This document shows, in pieces, positions 10,559-31,224 of a stretch of 42,499 nucleotides of DNA. Source of the stretch: a phage; sequence record OZ418230.1; one strand, given 5' to 3'. A program made the translations under genes and the position numbers. The notes under the pieces are model-generated. The model saw nothing but the letters and a program-made list of their open reading frames with translations, was not told where the DNA came from and made no database searches. How positions within the stretch are numbered: position 1 is the first letter of the stretch; every line of letters begins with the position of its first letter.

Positions 10559-13130
10559 ACCGGTAGGCGATCTGGTCGTTGATTTAAGTCTGGATGCGGC
10601 CAGATTTGACGAGCAGATGGCCAGAGTCAGGCGTCATTTTTCCGGTACGGAAAGTGATGCGAAAAAAACAGCGGCAGTCGTTGAACAGTCGCTGAGCCGA
10701 CAGGCGCTGGCTGCACAGAAAGCGGGGATTTCCGTCGGGCAGTATAAAGCTGCCATGCGTATGCTGCCTGCGCAGTTCACTGACGTGGCCACGCAGCTTG
10801 CAGGCGGGCAAAGTCCGTGGCTGATCCTGCTGCAACAGGGTGGTCAGGTGAAGGACTCCTTCGGCGGGATGATCCCCATGTTCAGGGGGCTTGCCGGTGC
10901 GATCACCCTGCCGATGGTCGGGGCCACCTCGCTGGCGGTGGCGACCGGTGCGCTGGCGTATGCCTGGTATCAGGGCAACTCAACCCTGTCCGATTTCAAT
11001 AAAACGCTGGTCCTTTCCGGTAATCAGGCGGGACTGACGGCAGATCGTATGCTGGCCCTGTCCAGATCCGGGCAGGCGGCAGGGCTGACGTTTAACCAGA
11101 CCAGCGAGTCACTGACGGCGCTGGTGAATGCCGGTGTGCGTGGTGGTGAGCAGTTTGAGGCAATCAGCCAGAGTGTGGCGCGTTTCTCCTCTGCATCCGG
11201 CGTGGAGGTGGACAAGGTCGCTGAAGCCTTCGGGAAGCTGACCACTGACCCGACGTCTGGGTTGACGGCGATGGCGCGCCAGTTCCATAACGTGACGGCG
11301 GAACAGATTGCGTATGTTGCTCAGTTGCAGCGTTCCGGCGATGGGGCCGGGGCATTGCAGGCGGCGAACGAGGCCGCAACGAAAGGGTTTGATGACCAGA
11401 CCCGTAAACTGAAAGATAACATGGGTACGCTGGAGACCTGGGCAGACAAGACTGCACAGGCATTCAAATCCATGTGGGATGCGGTGCTGGATATTGGTCG
11501 CCCGGACTCCTCTGCAGATATGCTCGCCAAAGCTGAAAAGGCTTTTGATGAAGCGGATAAAAAATGGCAGTGGTATCAGAGCCGAAGCCACCGGCGCGGT
11601 AAAACGTCAGCATTTCTTGCCAATCTCCGGGGGGCATGGGAGAAGAGAGAGAATGCGCGACTTGGGCTTTCAGCCGCCACGTTGCAGGCAGATCTTGAAA
11701 AGGCCAGTGAGATGGCAGCAAAAGATCGGGCCGAGTCTGAGGCATCACGGCTGAAATATACCGAAGAGGCGCAGAAGGCTTACGAACGCCTGCAGACACC
11801 GCTGGAGAAATATACCGCCCGCCAGGAGGAACTGAATAAGGCACTGAAAGACGGAAAAATCCTGCAGGCAGATTACAACACGCTGATGGCGGCGGCGAAA
11901 AAGGACTATGAAGCGACGCTGAAAAAGCCGAAGCAGTCCGGCGTGAAAGTGTCTGCGGGCGATCGTCAGGAAGACAGTGCTCATGCTGCCCTGCTGACGC
12001 TTCAGGCAGAACTCCGGACGCTGGAGAAGCATGCCGGAGCGAATGAGAAAATCAGCCAGCAGCGCCGGGATTTGTGGAAGGCAGAAAGTCAGTTCGCGGT
12101 ACTGGAGGAGGCGGCACAACGTCGCCAGCTGTCCGCACAGGAGAAATCCCTGCTGGCGCATAAAGACGAGACGCTGGAGTACAAACGCCAGCTGGCTGTA
12201 CTTGGCGACAAGGTCACCTATCAGGAGCACCTGAACGCGCTGGCGCAGCAGGCGGATAAGTTCGCACAGCAACAACGGGCAAAACGGGCCGCCATTGATG
12301 CAAAAAAACGGGGGCTGACTGACCGGCAGGCAGCGCGGGAAGCCACGGAACAGCGCCTGAAGGAACAGTATGGCGATAATCCGCTGGCGCTGAATAACGT
12401 CATGTCAGAGCAGAAAAAGACCTGGGCGGCTGAAGACCAGCTTCGCGGGAGCTGGATGGCAGGCCTGAAGTCCGGCTGGAGTGAGTGGGAAGAGAGCGCC
12501 ACGGACAGTATGTCGCAGGTTAAAAGTGCTGCCACGCAGACCTTTGATGGTATTGCACAGAATATGGCGGCGATGCTGACCGGCAGTGAGCAGAACTGGC
12601 GCAGCTTCACCCGTTCCGTGCTGTCCATGATGACAGAAATTCTGCTTAAGCAGGCAATGGTGGGGATTGTCGGGAGTATCGGCAGCGCCATTGGCGGGGC
12701 TGTTGGTGGCGGCGCGTCCGCGTCAGGCGGTACAGCCATTCAGGCCGCTGCGGCGAAATTCCATTTTGCAACCGGAGGATTTACGGGAACCGGCGGCAAA
12801 TATGAGCCAGCGGGGATTGTTCACCGCGGTGAATTTGTCTTCACGAAGGAGGCAACCAGCCGGATTGGCGTGGGGAATCTCTACCGGCTGATGCGCGGCT
12901 ATGCCACCGGTGGTTATGTCGGTACACCGGGCAGCATGGCGGACAGCCGGTCGCAGGCGTCCGGGAAGTTTGAGCAGAATAACCATGTGGTGATTAACAA
13001 CGACGGCACGAACGGTCAGATAGGGCCACAGGCGCTGAAGGCGGTTTATGACGTAGCCCGTAAGGCGGCAATGGATGTTGTGACCGGGCAGATGCGTGAT
13101 GGTGGTCTGTTCTCCGGAGGTGGACGATGA
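10551..13130 (+). CDS. H: tail tape measure protein H
   Basis: 859 aa, lambda gpH-like (lambda 853 aa). Confidence 0.95.
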   Translation: MAEPVGDLVVDLSLDAARFDEQMARVRRHFSGTESDAKKTAAVVEQSLSRQALAAQKAGISVGQYKAAMRMLPAQFTDVATQLAGGQSPWLILLQQGGQVKDSFGGMIPMFRGLAGAITLPMVGATSLAVATGALAYAWYQGNSTLSDFNKTLVLSGNQAGLTADRMLALSRSGQAAGLTFNQTSESLTALVNAGVRGGEQFEAISQSVARFSSASGVEVDKVAEAFGKLTTDPTSGLTAMARQFHNVTAEQIAYVAQLQRSGDGAGALQAANEAATKGFDDQTRKLKDNMGTLETWADKTAQAFKSMWDAVLDIGRPDSSADMLAKAEKAFDEADKKWQWYQSRSHRRGKTSAFLANLRGAWEKRENARLGLSAATLQADLEKASEMAAKDRAESEASRLKYTEEAQKAYERLQTPLEKYTARQEELNKALKDGKILQADYNTLMAAAKKDYEATLKKPKQSGVKVSAGDRQEDSAHAALLTLQAELRTLEKHAGANEKISQQRRDLWKAESQFAVLEEAAQRRQLSAQEKSLLAHKDETLEYKRQLAVLGDKVTYQEHLNALAQQADKFAQQQRAKRAAIDAKKRGLTDRQAAREATEQRLKEQYGDNPLALNNVMSEQKKTWAAEDQLRGSWMAGLKSGWSEWEESATDSMSQVKSAATQTFDGIAQNMAAMLTGSEQNWRSFTRSVLSMMTEILLKQAMVGIVGSIGSAIGGAVGGGASASGGTAIQAAAAKFHFATGGFTGTGGKYEPAGIVHRGEFVFTKEATSRIGVGNLYRLMRGYATGGYVGTPGSMADSRSQASGKFEQNNHVVINNDGTNGQIGPQALKAVYDVARKAAMDVVTGQMRDGGLFSGGGR

Positions 13131-26592: not shown

Positions 26593-26725
26593 TTTTTGGG
26601 ACTCCTGGCTGATTAAGTATGTCGATAAGGCGTTTCCATCCGTCACGTAATTTACGGGTGATTCGTTCAAGTAAAGATTCGGAAGGGCAGCCAGCAACAG
26701 GCCACCCTGCAATGGCATATTGCAT
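26561..26725 (-). CDS. cIII: CIII (FtsH inhibitor stabilising CII)
   Basis: Manual translation gives the 54-aa [54 protein letters not shown], lambda CIII; below the track length cutoff. Confidence 0.8.
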   Translation of the reverse strand: MQYAIAGWPVAGCPSESLLERITRKLRDGWKRLIDILNQPGVPKNGSNTYGYPD

Positions 26726-26797
26726 GGTGTGCTCCTTATTTATACATAACGAAAAACGCCTCGAGTGAAGCGTTATTGGTATGCGGTAACGCCGCGC

Positions 26798-27426: not shown

Positions 27427-28008
27427 ATGAACAACTCATGGTGGCAGGAACTAATGCATTTTTTCCTGCAAGGAATGACACTTAAACAGTTGATTCATAT
27501 GCTAATCATCCTGATCATATTGATTATTGTTATGCCTGTAAGCGTAAAAGAATGGATAAACCTGCATAATCCAGAAATCCTTCCTCATTACTGGATGTAT
27601 TACATCCTGTTGTTTTGCGTTAGCTATGTGCTTAACGGCGTTGTTAATTCCGCTTATCACGCTGTGACTGTAAGAATTGAGATATTCGCTGCTCAGAAGC
27701 GCAAATCTAAAGAAGAGAAATACGTGCAAGATTTGTTTGATTCGTTAACTCTTGGAGAAAGAGCGTATTTGGCATTCGCTGTAGCCGCTAATAACCAGCT
27801 AAAGACAGAAAAGGGAAGCCCTGAAGCAATCTCATTGCTCGAAAAAGGGCTTCTTATTCGGGTACCTTCTGCTACTGGATATCCTGAAATCGACCGTTTT
27901 GTTATCCCGGAACGCTATAGAAATGAGTGCTACATTAGGTTTGCTGGGAAGAAAGACAGTCTTATGGATGAACTTATCGCTCAGGATAAGCATGGCAAAA
28001 ACAAGTAA
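27427..28008 (+). CDS. superinfection exclusion protein B-like membrane protein
   Basis: 193 aa, N-terminal TM helices, rightward within the leftward operon next to N; lambda sieB promoter-like sequence (cccctacagcgagaaatcggataaac) upstream; protein diverges from lambda SieB. Confidence 0.6.
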   Translation: MNNSWWQELMHFFLQGMTLKQLIHMLIILIILIIVMPVSVKEWINLHNPEILPHYWMYYILLFCVSYVLNGVVNSAYHAVTVRIEIFAAQKRKSKEEKYVQDLFDSLTLGERAYLAFAVAANNQLKTEKGSPEAISLLEKGLLIRVPSATGYPEIDRFVIPERYRNECYIRFAGKKDSLMDELIAQDKHGKNK

Positions 28009-28024
28009 TTAGCAAATGAATTTA

Positions 28025-28333
28025 TCATCTCGCCGTCAGTTGTTTTGATTTCCGGTAGCCTGCCGCGTAAATAGCTACGTTTGGCAGGCAAACACTTCCA
28101 CTGCATTCATCTACTTTCTTGCAGCGAAGGCTTCCGAGTGATATTGCTTTTTCAGAAAGGCTTAACCGCTTTCTCGGGTCTTCCTGAACAGGTTCCTCAC
28201 TGTCTGTGCCGAAGATCGAATCGATGATGTTGCAGATGGAATCACGCTCGATGGCCAGCTTTCTGCGCCGCTCATGACGGCGAGTTTTGGCATTTCCTGC
28301 AAATGTTGATTTTCCGTACACGATTACCGTCAT
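28025..28333 (-). CDS. N: N-like transcription antiterminator
   Basis: Arg-rich motif (AKTRRHERRRKLAIER) near the N-terminus if started at MTVIVYG (28333); first gene after nutL; alternative start 28417. Not lambda N. Confidence 0.6.
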   Translation of the reverse strand: MTVIVYGKSTFAGNAKTRRHERRRKLAIERDSICNIIDSIFGTDSEEPVQEDPRKRLSLSEKAISLGSLRCKKVDECSGSVCLPNVAIYAAGYRKSKQLTAR

Positions 28334-28450
28334 GATGTTTTCCTCATGTGAAATGGCTTTGGTGGTGATGCGCCAGATGCTGATCTTCTGGTTGCTGTCG
28401 TTACTGCTGCAATTCACATCACCCCAAACCCATCTCGTTTGGTATCTGTT

Positions 28451-28486
28451 CGCGCTTTGTCAGCGCATCATCGAAGTTAAAGAGCC
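28451..28486 (-). promoter_or_regulatory. nutL candidate (boxA-like ggctctttaa plus boxB hairpin gcgc-tgacaaa-gcgc on the minus strand)
   Basis: Same boxA/boxB arrangement and GACAA loop as the nutR candidate after cro. Confidence 0.5.
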
Positions 28487-28740
28487 TGCCAATCTGTTCC
28501 GTTTGGCTGCCAGCGTCCTGCTGATGGCGATTATAATGAACCAATAGTTCGATATTATCAAGAACTATAAGTACGAATTGTTTGTGGTTCATTAACTTAA
28601 TGAGATATGTTTTTGATATGTAAAGGAATTTATTTTTGTAAAGATTGAAGATTGGTCAGTAGGAGAGAAAGAATTGTTTGCTGGCGTGTTAGTTCGTGGG
28701 TTAGCACATGTGCGGATGTTAAATAAGGTAGACGATCGTG

Positions 28741-28770
28741 AGGAAAAGAAAAACCGGCGCTGAGGCCGGG
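28741..28770 (-). terminator. rho-independent terminator ending the cI-side (immunity) transcript
   Basis: On the minus strand, hairpin cccggc-ctcagc-gccggg followed by tttttcttttcc, 5 nt after the stop of the 28776..29675 gene. Confidence 0.6.
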
Positions 28771-28775
28771 TATAA

Positions 28776-29675
28776 TTATTTGATTATTTCTTTTATAAAG
28801 ACTTCTTTCGGTTGGTATTTTTTATCTGATGATTTGAGCTGGTACGTTATTGTTATATCAGCACGTACAGAAAATTTACCTGCAAAATCTGATGGGTTTA
28901 CGTTGGGGCCAAGAACCATATTTACTCTTCGATCTATTAATCCAGGGATAACAGCAGCCCAACCTTTCTCTGGATTGTCGAGGTCTAATGCACGGATTTC
29001 AACATCAACATCAAAATGATCCTGAGTATATGACTCTGGTGTGAAGACAACTTCAGTTGGGGCTTTTTTAATGGTTTCAGCGGGAATGGTCACTGTACCA
29101 CCCCCTGTACCTATGACCATCGTAGATCCTTCGTCTGCCCTAGCTGGGGCAAGCGTCTTAATGGAACTTTTGGCAAGAGTCTTCTTATTGGTTACCGTGC
29201 TTTCTATGATTGCTTGAAGACGGTCAGGTGAAATATTAGCCTCACCGGCACCAATATTGATGATTGTATTGTTATTTGCTTCAAAGTGGGAGGTGTTGCT
29301 TGGAGCCATAGCCTTAGTTGCTAGAACTAAGCCATATCCAACCAGACCAATAACAACAGCACCAACGAGAGCGTTTCTCATTTTCCCATTTCCGATCTTT
29401 GCATGAGCGCCAGCAAGAAACTTGTCCATTTCTTCTTGGCTACCAAAGAGGAGTTTAATAACAATATCTTCATAAAGGCTTCCTGCTTCTAATCGCGCAA
29501 CATGCACCGATATATCAAGGATATTAGCCCCTGTCAGTTCCTGCAAAACACCTTCTGATTGTTTTGCGATGGCCTCCCACCCTTGAAGGGAGGTAATCAC
29601 ATCTTTGATGCTTACAGGTTCTTTAGTTGAATAATATATGTTTTCGGTAAAGGTTAAAGATAATTCTTGGGACAT
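28776..29675 (-). CDS. uncharacterised membrane-anchored protein in the rexAB position
   Basis: 299-aa ORF downstream of cI on the same strand, gagg SD, one predicted TM helix (MRNALVGAVVIGLVGYGLVLATKA), low GC; no family recognised. Confidence 0.7.
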   Translation of the reverse strand: MSQELSLTFTENIYYSTKEPVSIKDVITSLQGWEAIAKQSEGVLQELTGANILDISVHVARLEAGSLYEDIVIKLLFGSQEEMDKFLAGAHAKIGNGKMRNALVGAVVIGLVGYGLVLATKAMAPSNTSHFEANNNTIINIGAGEANISPDRLQAIIESTVTNKKTLAKSSIKTLAPARADEGSTMVIGTGGGTVTIPAETIKKAPTEVVFTPESYTQDHFDVDVEIRALDLDNPEKGWAAVIPGLIDRRVNMVLGPNVNPSDFAGKFSVRADITITYQLKSSDKKYQPKEVFIKEIIK

Positions 29676-29804
29676 CCGAGCCCTCGCTGTTTCTTTCGAT
29701 TTGCTGTGTTAAGCTAATATTTTAATATCCATGTTTCTGTTTGCTTGCAGTGTGTTTCTCACCACCATCCAAACGTACTGGTTACTAGCTATGTGATGAT
29801 GAAG

Positions 29805-30512
29805 TCATGAACTTTTCAGCCATTCCCTGGCCTCGATGTCATCTAGGTGGCGAGATTGCTTCAGAATACCAGCTACATACTCCACCTTTGCTACTTGATG
29901 ATAAGGCAACGTTATTGGCCTGTGGTCTTGGTTGATGCTTGTAAATTGGTATTCTCCGTCTCTGTCATAGCCAAGAACCTTGATCATGTTGTGCCCTTCA
30001 ATGGTTCTGACAAACACCTCATCACCTGGGAATACTTTGGTGTTAGGCTCAATGAGTACATATTCTCCTGATTTTATTCTGGGCCACATGCTGTCTCCTT
30101 TTACACGAAGACCAAAGGCATCTGGATCATCGCTATAAATCTTGAGCCACCCATCGCGCTCTTCGGTCATCTCGATGGCACCATCAACACCAAGAATTGC
30201 CTCACCAACCACGCGCACTAACCCTTTTTTTAATTTGCCAACAATTGAAAAAGTATCTTCATCATTCGCTCCATTTAACGAAGTGCCGTGCTGAAGCCAA
30301 ACAACATCAACGTTTAGAAATTTCGCAAGCGCATTCATTTTTTCCTGGCGTGGTAAAGACTCAGCATTAAACCATTTGCTAACGCCTTTGGACGAAAGAG
30401 AAAGGGCACGGGCTATGGCCATTCCCCTACCATGTTCATCAAGACCAGCTTCTTTACAGGCTTGCGCTAGCCGCTGGGCGAATTCTTTGCGCACTTTTTC
30501 ATTCTGAACCAT
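29805..30512 (-). CDS. cI: CI-type prophage repressor (HTH + S24 LexA-like peptidase domain), non-lambda immunity
   Basis: 235 aa; N-terminal HTH and C-terminal GDSM serine motif; divergently oriented to cro; not lambda or 434 cI. Confidence 0.85.
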   Translation of the reverse strand: MVQNEKVRKEFAQRLAQACKEAGLDEHGRGMAIARALSLSSKGVSKWFNAESLPRQEKMNALAKFLNVDVVWLQHGTSLNGANDEDTFSIVGKLKKGLVRVVGEAILGVDGAIEMTEERDGWLKIYSDDPDAFGLRVKGDSMWPRIKSGEYVLIEPNTKVFPGDEVFVRTIEGHNMIKVLGYDRDGEYQFTSINQDHRPITLPYHQVAKVEYVAGILKQSRHLDDIEAREWLKSS

Positions 30513-30590
30513 GAGTACGATACTAAAGCACTTGCAAAAACTTTCAGTTCAACCATAATGCGTACTGAAAGTACGAAAAAGGACATTCCT
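30513..30590. promoter_or_regulatory. oR/pRM/pR divergent promoter-operator region
   Basis: 78-bp gap between divergent cI and cro; contains inverted ctttcag/ctgaaag and repeated gtacga elements. Confidence 0.6.
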
Positions 30591-30818
30591 ATGCAAAATC
30601 TTGATGAGCCGATTAAAGGTGTCGGCATCCCTGAAGTTGCGAAGGCTTGTGGAGTTAGCGAAAGGGCTGTCTATAAGTGGCTCAAAAACGGCTTCCTCCC
30701 TAAGACTGAGTTTTTTGGGAAAACGAAATACGCATCAAAAATCGAAGAGATTTCTGGTGGCAAATATCAAGCAAGCGAAATGCTTGAAATAAGCAAAAAG
30801 AACCTTCTGGCAGCATAA
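30591..30818 (+). CDS. cro: Cro-like HTH repressor
   Basis: 75 aa from MQNLDEPIKGVGIPEVAKACGVSERAVYKWL… (HTH), with aagga SD; the track start at 30558 would leave too little room for operators. Confidence 0.75.
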   Translation: MQNLDEPIKGVGIPEVAKACGVSERAVYKWLKNGFLPKTEFFGKTKYASKIEEISGGKYQASEMLEISKKNLLAA

Positions 30819-30825
30819 GTAACAC

Positions 30826-30860
30826 CGCTCTTTATCAATCTGCACCGCCGACAACGCGGT
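30826..30860 (+). promoter_or_regulatory. nutR candidate (boxA cgctcttta; boxB hairpin accgc-cgacaac-gcggt)
   Basis: boxA consensus immediately after cro stop, followed by a 5-bp stem / 7-nt loop hairpin. Confidence 0.55.
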
Positions 30861-30924
30861 AACTAATTAAGAACTCATCGAAAGATGCGTATTAGTGATT
30901 ATTTACCTATGGAAATAGTAAGAA

Positions 30925-31224
30925 ATGGAACAAACAAATTACAGCAAACTATCACAGCGCGACGTTGATCGCGCAGAAACAGATTTACTTATCAACCTGT
31001 CAACGCTTACTCAGCGCGGTCTGGCAAAGATGATTGGCTGTCATGAATCGAAGATAAGCAGAACAGACTGGAGGTTTATAGCTTCGGTCTTGTGTGCTTT
31101 TGGCATGGCATCAGACATCAGTCCGATTAGCAGAGCTTTTAAGTATGCGCTTGATGAAATCACCAATAAAAAACGCCCGGTGTGCAAGACCGAGCGTTCT
31201 GAACAAATCCAGATGGAGTTCTGA
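30925..31224 (+). CDS. cII: CII transcriptional activator
   Basis: 99 aa; C-terminus …TNKKRP…TERSEQIQMEF as lambda CII. Confidence 0.85.
   Translation: MEQTNYSKLSQRDVDRAETDLLINLSTLTQRGLAKMIGCHESKISRTDWRFIASVLCAFGMASDISPISRAFKYALDEITNKKRPVCKTERSEQIQMEF

Follow-up and report, generated by a model that had tools for sequence, protein, structure and literature searches.

A 933W-type immunity module joined to P22-type nut sites in a lambdoid coliphage

Which immunity system is encoded at positions 28451–30860 of the phage sequence OZ418230.1, and do the short repeats shared by its two operator regions belong to repressor-binding sites? The window is the whole 42,499-nucleotide stretch of this record, and all coordinates refer to it. 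An earlier note on this DNA described a cI/cro pair that differs from lambda, matched candidates for nutL and nutR, and a 9-mer present in both operator regions. The region is almost certainly the immunity module of phage 933W (imm933W) together with P22-type nut sites, carried by a lambdoid coliphage that is not a Shiga toxin (Stx) phage. Both parts of this combination, the 933W switch and the P22-type N/nut system, were previously known, and the operators and nut sites hold nothing new.

The sequence identities, site positions, enrichment and conservation given below were computed here. Eleven deposited coliphage records match positions 28400–30900 with 100% identity (Escherichia phage 1H12, Lambda_2E9, Lambda_ev087 and others), and many Stx2a-converting phages are ~96% identical to the same interval, in two pieces. 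Several of the identical records, for example LR595860, annotate cro as 'Regulatory protein Cro of bacteriophage BP-933W'. The cI repressor (29805–30512, minus strand; 235 amino acids; Pfam HTH_3 and Peptidase_S24) is of the 933W type and is identical to the cI of 933W (NC_000924) at 232 of 235 residues. Residues 1–87 are identical, and the three differences, all conservative, lie outside the N-terminal DNA-binding domain: F88 (L in 933W) and I90 (F) in the linker and I171 (V) in the C-terminal domain. Cro (30591–30818, plus strand; 75 amino acids; Pfam helix–turn–helix (HTH)) is 100% identical to 933W Cro when the translations are compared. The right operator (oR) DNA departs from that of 933W at only two bases, one just outside oR1 and the other in the cro leader. 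The suggestion that cI and cro are heteroimmune to lambda is therefore borne out, and the immunity type can be named.

The operators are 15-base-pair (bp) dyads. oR1–3 were placed by offset transfer from the 15-bp features annotated in NC_000924. oR3, TGAACCATGAGTACG (30505–30519), is centred on the cI start codon, equals the annotated oR3 (12775–12789 of NC_000924) in both sequence and offset, and was also recovered by pattern match. oR2, AAAACTTTCAGTTCA (30537–30551), and oR1, CGTACTGAAAGTACG (30561–30575), lie at the offsets of their namesakes in NC_000924; oR2 has A for G at position 2 of one half-site, and oR1 is a perfect 6-3-6 palindrome. All 45 operator positions of oR1–3 are identical to NC_000924, and the oR centres are 24 and 32 bp apart. 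In the left operator (oL), both sites are exact matches to the dyad pattern. oL1, TGAACCAATAGTTCG (28537–28551), lies in the pL spacer, overlaps the -10 element, is identical in 933W and is conserved in 73 related loci. oL2, AGAACTATAAGTACG (28561–28575), abuts the pL -35 element and carries the left copy of the 9-mer. The 933W oL2 is AGAACTATTGGTACG, which differs from the oL2 of the window only at positions 7' and 6' (ATAAG here, ATTGG in 933W). The half-sites of the five operators have the consensus nG(A/T)AC(T/C), around a variable centre of 3 bp.

Binding, activation and repression, non-cooperativity and the ind mutation are taken from published work on 933W. The 933W repressor site is described as 15 bp long and rotationally symmetric about its central pair, with positions 2–5 strongly conserved, T at position 6 in seven half-sites and C in three, and a variable centre (Bullwinkle et al. 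2012, PMC3317979). 933W has five natural sites, all named as OR or OL sites, and OL3 is absent; one half-site of OR2 is without the G-C pair at position 2, and OR1 departs from the consensus at positions 3, 7' and 3' (PMC3317979). Every statement of this description fits the five sequences of the window. Residues S41 and K46 of the recognition helix, modelled as contacting positions 2 and 5 (PMC3317979), are present in the window cI. The identity of the DNA-binding domain and of the operators suggests that cI binds the five sites and that a lysogen would be immune to phages of 933W immunity.

The distribution of the dyad is consistent with this assignment. Its core, GWACYNNNRGTWC, has four exact matches on the two strands of the 42.5-kb window, where 0.29 are expected (~14-fold enrichment), and 0 of 100 shuffles reach four. 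All four fall in oL or oR. oR2 is the sole one-mismatch match in the immunity region, and the five further one-mismatch matches elsewhere in the window fit chance expectation. Scans with the exact and the one-mismatch pattern found no third oL site, only 28537–28551 and 28561–28575. A CGTACT half-site at 29774–29779 was considered as an extra operator and rejected, having no partner half-site. Conservation was assessed in 80 loci from IMG/VR whose cI has at least 98% identity. Positions 2–5 of the oR sites are variable at 0 of 20 positions and positions 2–6 are invariant; variation around oR is seen at base 30552, between the operators, at the base preceding oR1 and in the cro leader. For oL (BLAST and MAFFT; 39 haplotypes, 73 loci), 1 of 16 positions is variable within positions 2–5, 9 of 10 within positions 6–8, and 32 of 51 in the flanks. 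The oL1–oL2 spacing is always 24 bp in the related loci.

The antitermination functions on either side of this module are those of P22. N (28025–28333, minus strand; 102 amino acids; Pfam N_peptide, E = 5e-41) is 71% identical to P22 gp24. Its arginine-rich segment, GNAKTRRHERRRKLAIERD (residues 13–31), is identical in gp24, where it is the boxB RNA-binding motif. 933W N shares only the last 22 amino acids with the window N. The order boxA, spacer, boxB is found at 28451–28486 on the minus strand (GGCTCTTTA-ACTTCGATGAT-GCGCTGACAAAGCGC-G) and at 30826–30860 on the plus strand (CGCTCTTTA-TCAATCTGC-ACCGCCGACAACGCGGT). At nutL, boxA GGCTCTTTA (28478–28486, minus strand) has one difference from the P22 nutL boxA CGCTCTTTA, G for C at its start, and the boxB hairpin GCGCUGACAAAGCGC (28452–28466, minus strand) is identical to the annotated P22 nutL. 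At nutR, boxA CGCTCTTTA (30826–30834, plus strand) is identical to P22, as is boxB ACCGCCGACAACGCGGT (30844–30860, plus strand) to the annotated P22 nutR. Both boxB elements are predicted to form hairpins with 5-bp stems; the loop is a GACAA pentaloop at nutL and 7 nucleotides containing GACAA at nutR. The boxB-left GCGCTGACAAAGCGC and boxB-right ACCGCCGACAACGCGGT of P22 thus recur unchanged, with only slight differences in boxA and the spacers. The reading of these GACAA-loop elements as nutL and nutR holds, with the addition that they are P22-type and matched to a P22-type N. In contrast, the N, nutL and nutR of 933W are 933W/H-19B-type.

The boxB RNAs and the arginine-rich segment of N do not differ from their P22 counterparts, and antitermination by N would therefore be expected to follow the P22 pattern. 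Between the nut sites the likeness to P22 does not extend to the switch, as P22 C2 and its 18-bp operators are unrelated to the repressor and operators of the window. As a separate observation, the 933W nutL boxB, GCGCTGACAAAGCGC, is the same as the boxB-left of P22 and of the window, even though 933W N has a different arginine-rich motif, RSRRRERLKAKALANG, from P22 gp24.

The 933W homology ends inside nutR boxA on the right, where the change from 933W-like to P22-like sequence falls, and at the pL transcript start, GCGTCCTGCTGA, on the left. The GCGTCCTGCTGA block (28513–28527) is common to the window, P22 and 933W. The promoter scan places pL at 28533–28561 on the minus strand (TTGATA, 17-bp spacer, CATTAT), and by analogy with pL of lambda and P22 we infer a start near 28525, at the conserved ATCAGCAGGACGC. 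Since sequence switches between P22-like and 933W-like at both points, these are likely recombination joints. Exchange of the immunity cassette apparently took place at these two points, both of them short conserved sequences that lambdoid phages have in common.

The promoters of the right side also follow 933W. pR (30532–30559, plus strand; TTGCAA, 16-bp spacer, CATAAT) was found by promoter scan at the position of the pR annotated in NC_000924. The putative PRM (30520–30547, minus strand) was transferred from the 'pM putative' of NC_000924, and its -10 element, TAGTAT (30525–30520), sits in the gap between oR2 and oR3. With the -10 element there, and oR3 centred on the start, the cI mRNA would be leaderless or nearly so. 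A lambda-like PRM using TTGCAA as -35 element was rejected; its transcript would start 10 nucleotides inside cI and expose an out-of-frame AUG. The PRM -35 element annotated for 933W falls inside oR2, yet oR2-bound repressor is reported to activate PRM. The terminator scan identified tM as a GC-rich hairpin, CCGGCCTCAGCGCCGG, followed by a T-run (28754–28769, minus strand), which aligns with the tM of NC_000924. 933W therefore shares with the window its three oR operators in sequence and spacing, oL1, pR, the position of pM, tM and the presence of only two oL sites.

Several points weigh against a full equation of this locus with the 933W switch and a P22-type nut system. The centre of oR2 is 32 bp from the cI ATG, compared with 42 bp in lambda, one helical turn closer, so that activation of PRM by oR2-bound repressor is not explained by lambda geometry. 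oL2 deviates from 933W at positions 7' and 6', and its affinity may therefore differ. cI hardly differs among the related loci, which limits the depth of the conservation test, and part of the oL tabulation was selected with the dyad pattern itself, although the oL variability counts were not. Finally, the folding energies and z-scores of the nut hairpins are indistinguishable from those of shuffled sequences. Such z-scores are uninformative for short hairpins, and identity to P22 was therefore relied on instead.

Among the competing explanations, the one that survives best concerns how the repressor is inactivated. The Ser-Lys dyad of an autoprotease is present in cI as S141, in the GDSM motif, and K178 (Pfam PF00717 Peptidase_S24, E = 3.5e-16), and K178N is the ind mutation that renders 933W uninducible (PMC3610611). 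The earlier note had found no canonical Ala-Gly upstream of the GDSM serine, and this is confirmed for the linker. Ala-Gly occurs in cI only at 22–23, in the DNA-binding domain, and at 214–215, in the C-terminal domain, with none in the linker before S141, and Cys-Gly occurs nowhere in cI. 933W shares S141 and K178 as well as the linker without Ala-Gly, a peculiarity already described for its repressor. Given such a linker, cleavage would most probably fall at L107–G108 (VVGEAILG-VDG), the only Leu-Gly before S141. G108 is 33 residues from S141, and the corresponding distance is 34 in LexA and 37 in lambda cI and P22 C2.

Cleavage at K96–G97, or induction without cI cleavage (for example by an antirepressor route), is the alternative. 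MAFFT places K96–G97 (IVGKLKKG) opposite the Ala-Gly of lambda cI, P22 C2 and LexA, and G97 comes to lie under the Gly of the LexA sequence LVGRVAAG. This alignment requires a 10-residue gap, an insertion that leaves G97 44 residues from S141, outside the 34–37 of the known repressors, and VVGEAILG likewise fits the LexA motif. When cI was aligned locally (BLOSUM62) with lambda cI, P22 C2 and LexA, the alignments did not extend into the linker, and a search of cI against Protein Data Bank chains gave no match at E ≤ 1e-3. As the alignment of the cleavage site is ambiguous, the distance to the catalytic Ser was used. RecA-stimulated cleavage of the 933W repressor at Leu-Gly was reportedly shown by Koudelka, Hufnagel and Koudelka in 2004 (J Bacteriol 186:7659), in a paper whose title, as given in reference lists, includes the word 'autocleavage'; a literature search on Leu-Gly cleavage of the 933W or any other repressor returned no usable statement. 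The MAFFT placement and the truncated local alignments count against the assignment. The uninducible phenotype of K178N shows that 933W induction depends on the autoprotease (PMC3610611), which argues against a route without cleavage. Taken together, the alternative is unlikely, and cleavage at L107–G108, which rests on the spacing and on the reported Leu-Gly cleavage, is assigned with considerable confidence.

A second alternative is a lambda-like switch, with three operators per side, pairwise cooperativity and octamer looping between oL and oR controlling PRM. The window shares with lambda the gene order N, nutL, pL/oL, accessory genes, cI, oR, cro, nutR, cII, the HTH and S24 architecture of the repressor and, probably, a leaderless cI message. 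oL and oR are 2.0 kb apart, and their paired sites are identically spaced at 24 bp. However, the lambda operators are 17 bp long, of other sequence and number three in oL, whereas those of the window are 15 bp long with only two in oL, even when one mismatch is allowed, and lambda cI is only ~24% identical to the window cI. The spacing of oR2 and oR3 and the distance from oR2 to the ATG are also unlike lambda. The near-identical 933W repressor is reported to bind adjacent sites without cooperativity (PMC3317979; PMC5977221), in a phage without OL3 (PMC3317979), and PRM to be activated by occupancy of oR2 and repressed by occupancy of oR3 (PMC3317979; PMC5977221). A lambda-like mode of control is thus very unlikely, and a 933W-like switch is preferred.

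What, then, is the shared 9-mer? AAGTACGAA is present exactly at 28569–28577, on the pL side, and at 30569–30577, on the pR side, as had been described, and the related AGTACGA at 30514–30520 is likewise there and is the right half-site of oR3. At oL2 and oR1 the 9-mer consists of position 7', the half-site AGTACG (6'–1') and two flanking A's. The proposal that these repeats are operator half-sites was therefore correct in that AGTACG is the right half (6'–1') of oL2, oR1 and oR3, while the functional unit is the 15-bp dyad and not the 9-mer. That description of the operator regions also missed oL1, did not delimit oR2 and oR3 and did not recognise the module as a known one. The ctttcag/ctgaaag inverted repeats are present at 30541–30547 and 30565–30571; they are not a separate element but positions 5–5' of oR2 and oR1. 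Their complementarity comes solely from the C-T-nnn-A-G dyad form of both operators, combined with the opposite orientation of the two asymmetric centres.

The 9-mer, or the ctttcag/ctgaaag pair, could instead be a separate element recognised by Cro, a host factor or another protein. GTACGAA is retained at oL2 and oR1 in all haplotypes, and the A flank may fall within the footprint of ~18 bp mentioned for the 933W repressor (PMC3317979). Against a separate element, the 933W oL2 carries TGGTACGAA, so that conservation within the immunity type extends to the half-sites, across the 80 loci, but not to the 9-mer; the comparison among phages of the same immunity that had been proposed as a check thus supports the half-site and not the longer repeat. 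The 7-mers coincide exactly with positions 5 to 5' of oR2 and oR1, and lambdoid Cro proteins generally use the operators of the repressor. These results make a separate element extremely unlikely. That the 9-mer is a functionless chance repeat has next to no probability: it is exactly twofold in the window where shuffles give 0.17 (3 of 100 reach two), is not enriched with one mismatch (4 found, 6.4 expected) and has a core, AGTACG, that occurs 16 times in the window, but both exact copies lie inside dyads matching experimentally defined 933W operators, a pattern ~14-fold enriched, confined to oL and oR and conserved in its half-site core across the 80 loci.

With the repeats assigned to the 15-bp dyads, the switch would be expected to work as it does in 933W. 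By this identity, a cI dimer would bind each of the five dyads, with oR1 lying over the pR start, oR2 within the spacer of pR and oR3 across the cI start codon. Occupancy of oR1, oR2, oL1 and oL2 would repress pR and pL; occupancy of oR2 would turn PRM on, and occupancy of oR3 would turn it off. Control would operate through the intrinsic affinities of the sites, without pairwise cooperativity, as shown for 933W. In the SOS response, RecA would stimulate self-cleavage of cI by S141/K178, most probably at L107–G108. The pL and pR transcripts made on derepression would then carry boxA and GACAA-loop boxB RNAs, the latter identical to those of P22.

Between cI and tM lies an open reading frame (ORF) of 299 amino acids (28776–29675, minus strand). 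The same slot holds rexAB in lambda and the abortive-infection kinase gene stk, with its neighbours, in 933W. No terminator-like site was found between cI and the 299-amino-acid ORF, and for this reason we infer that the two are probably carried on one transcript ending at tM and expressed in lysogens, like rexAB or stk. The product is a predicted membrane protein with a central hydrophobic stretch that is predicted to be helical. It matches PHROG 4506, a family of unknown function, over its full length, and gave no significant Pfam match, no match to the PADLOC models of 2023 and no convincing match to a solved fold. The family comprises 56 clusters, all annotated as 'hypothetical'. Distant members are found in a Serratia element with a primase/DUF927 gene, which we read as P4-like, and in a Mu-like prophage in Accumulibacter. 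The protein may, tentatively, be a new superinfection-exclusion or abortive-infection factor expressed in lysogens. As a lesser possibility, the threshold of 'hair-trigger' induction may be shifted relative to 933W by the oL2 variant and the linker substitutions.

The cargo itself is changeable. The distance from the cI stop codon to oL ranges from 872 to 2358 bp among related loci with nearly identical cI, so that the segment between cI and oL is exchangeable and accommodates many different genes. In the window, the centres of oL1 and oL2 (28544 and 28568) lie exactly 2000 bp from those of oR2 and oR1 (30544 and 30568), both pairs being spaced by 24 bp. As other loci show other distances, this offset is probably a coincidence of the present cargo variant.

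Of 5426 complete E. coli genomes, 615 carry the module and 150 carry the cargo variant seen here. Each operator, promoter, nut site and terminator of this widespread module can be placed to the base, which is of value mainly for annotation; the records of 1H12 and the Lambda_ev phages annotate no operator, promoter, nut or terminator features across this stretch, and a literature search on 1H12 and Lambda_ev returned no relevant paper. The 933W switch has been studied because it controls the release of Shiga toxin. No stx gene was found in the examined part of the window, and the switch thus also circulates in phages without stx in the examined region, joined there to a different antitermination module. 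The finding itself renders no open question newly testable.

The 1H12 record contains a plus-strand gene call of 70 amino acids, 'FIG00644188 hypothetical protein' (28335–28547; NC_049947 gp49), that spans the N leader, nutL, pL and oL1. This call is probably spurious, and gene status is implausible also for a minus-strand ORF of 57 amino acids at 28419–28592.

To the right of nutR, cII (30925–31224, plus strand; Pfam Phage_CII) has no detectable similarity to P22 C1, and its C-terminal end (KKRP..TERSEQIQMEF) resembles that of lambda cII. The sequence right of nutR, including cII, appears to be a further mosaic piece. By eye, the ORFs downstream of cII resemble lambda O and P. On the other side, sieB (27427–28008, plus strand; Pfam SieB) lies to the left of N. 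Further left, a match to the Rfam family Lambda_thermo, the cIII thermoregulator (88.5 bits; 26680–26738, minus strand), is positioned upstream of a lambda-like cIII/kil region.

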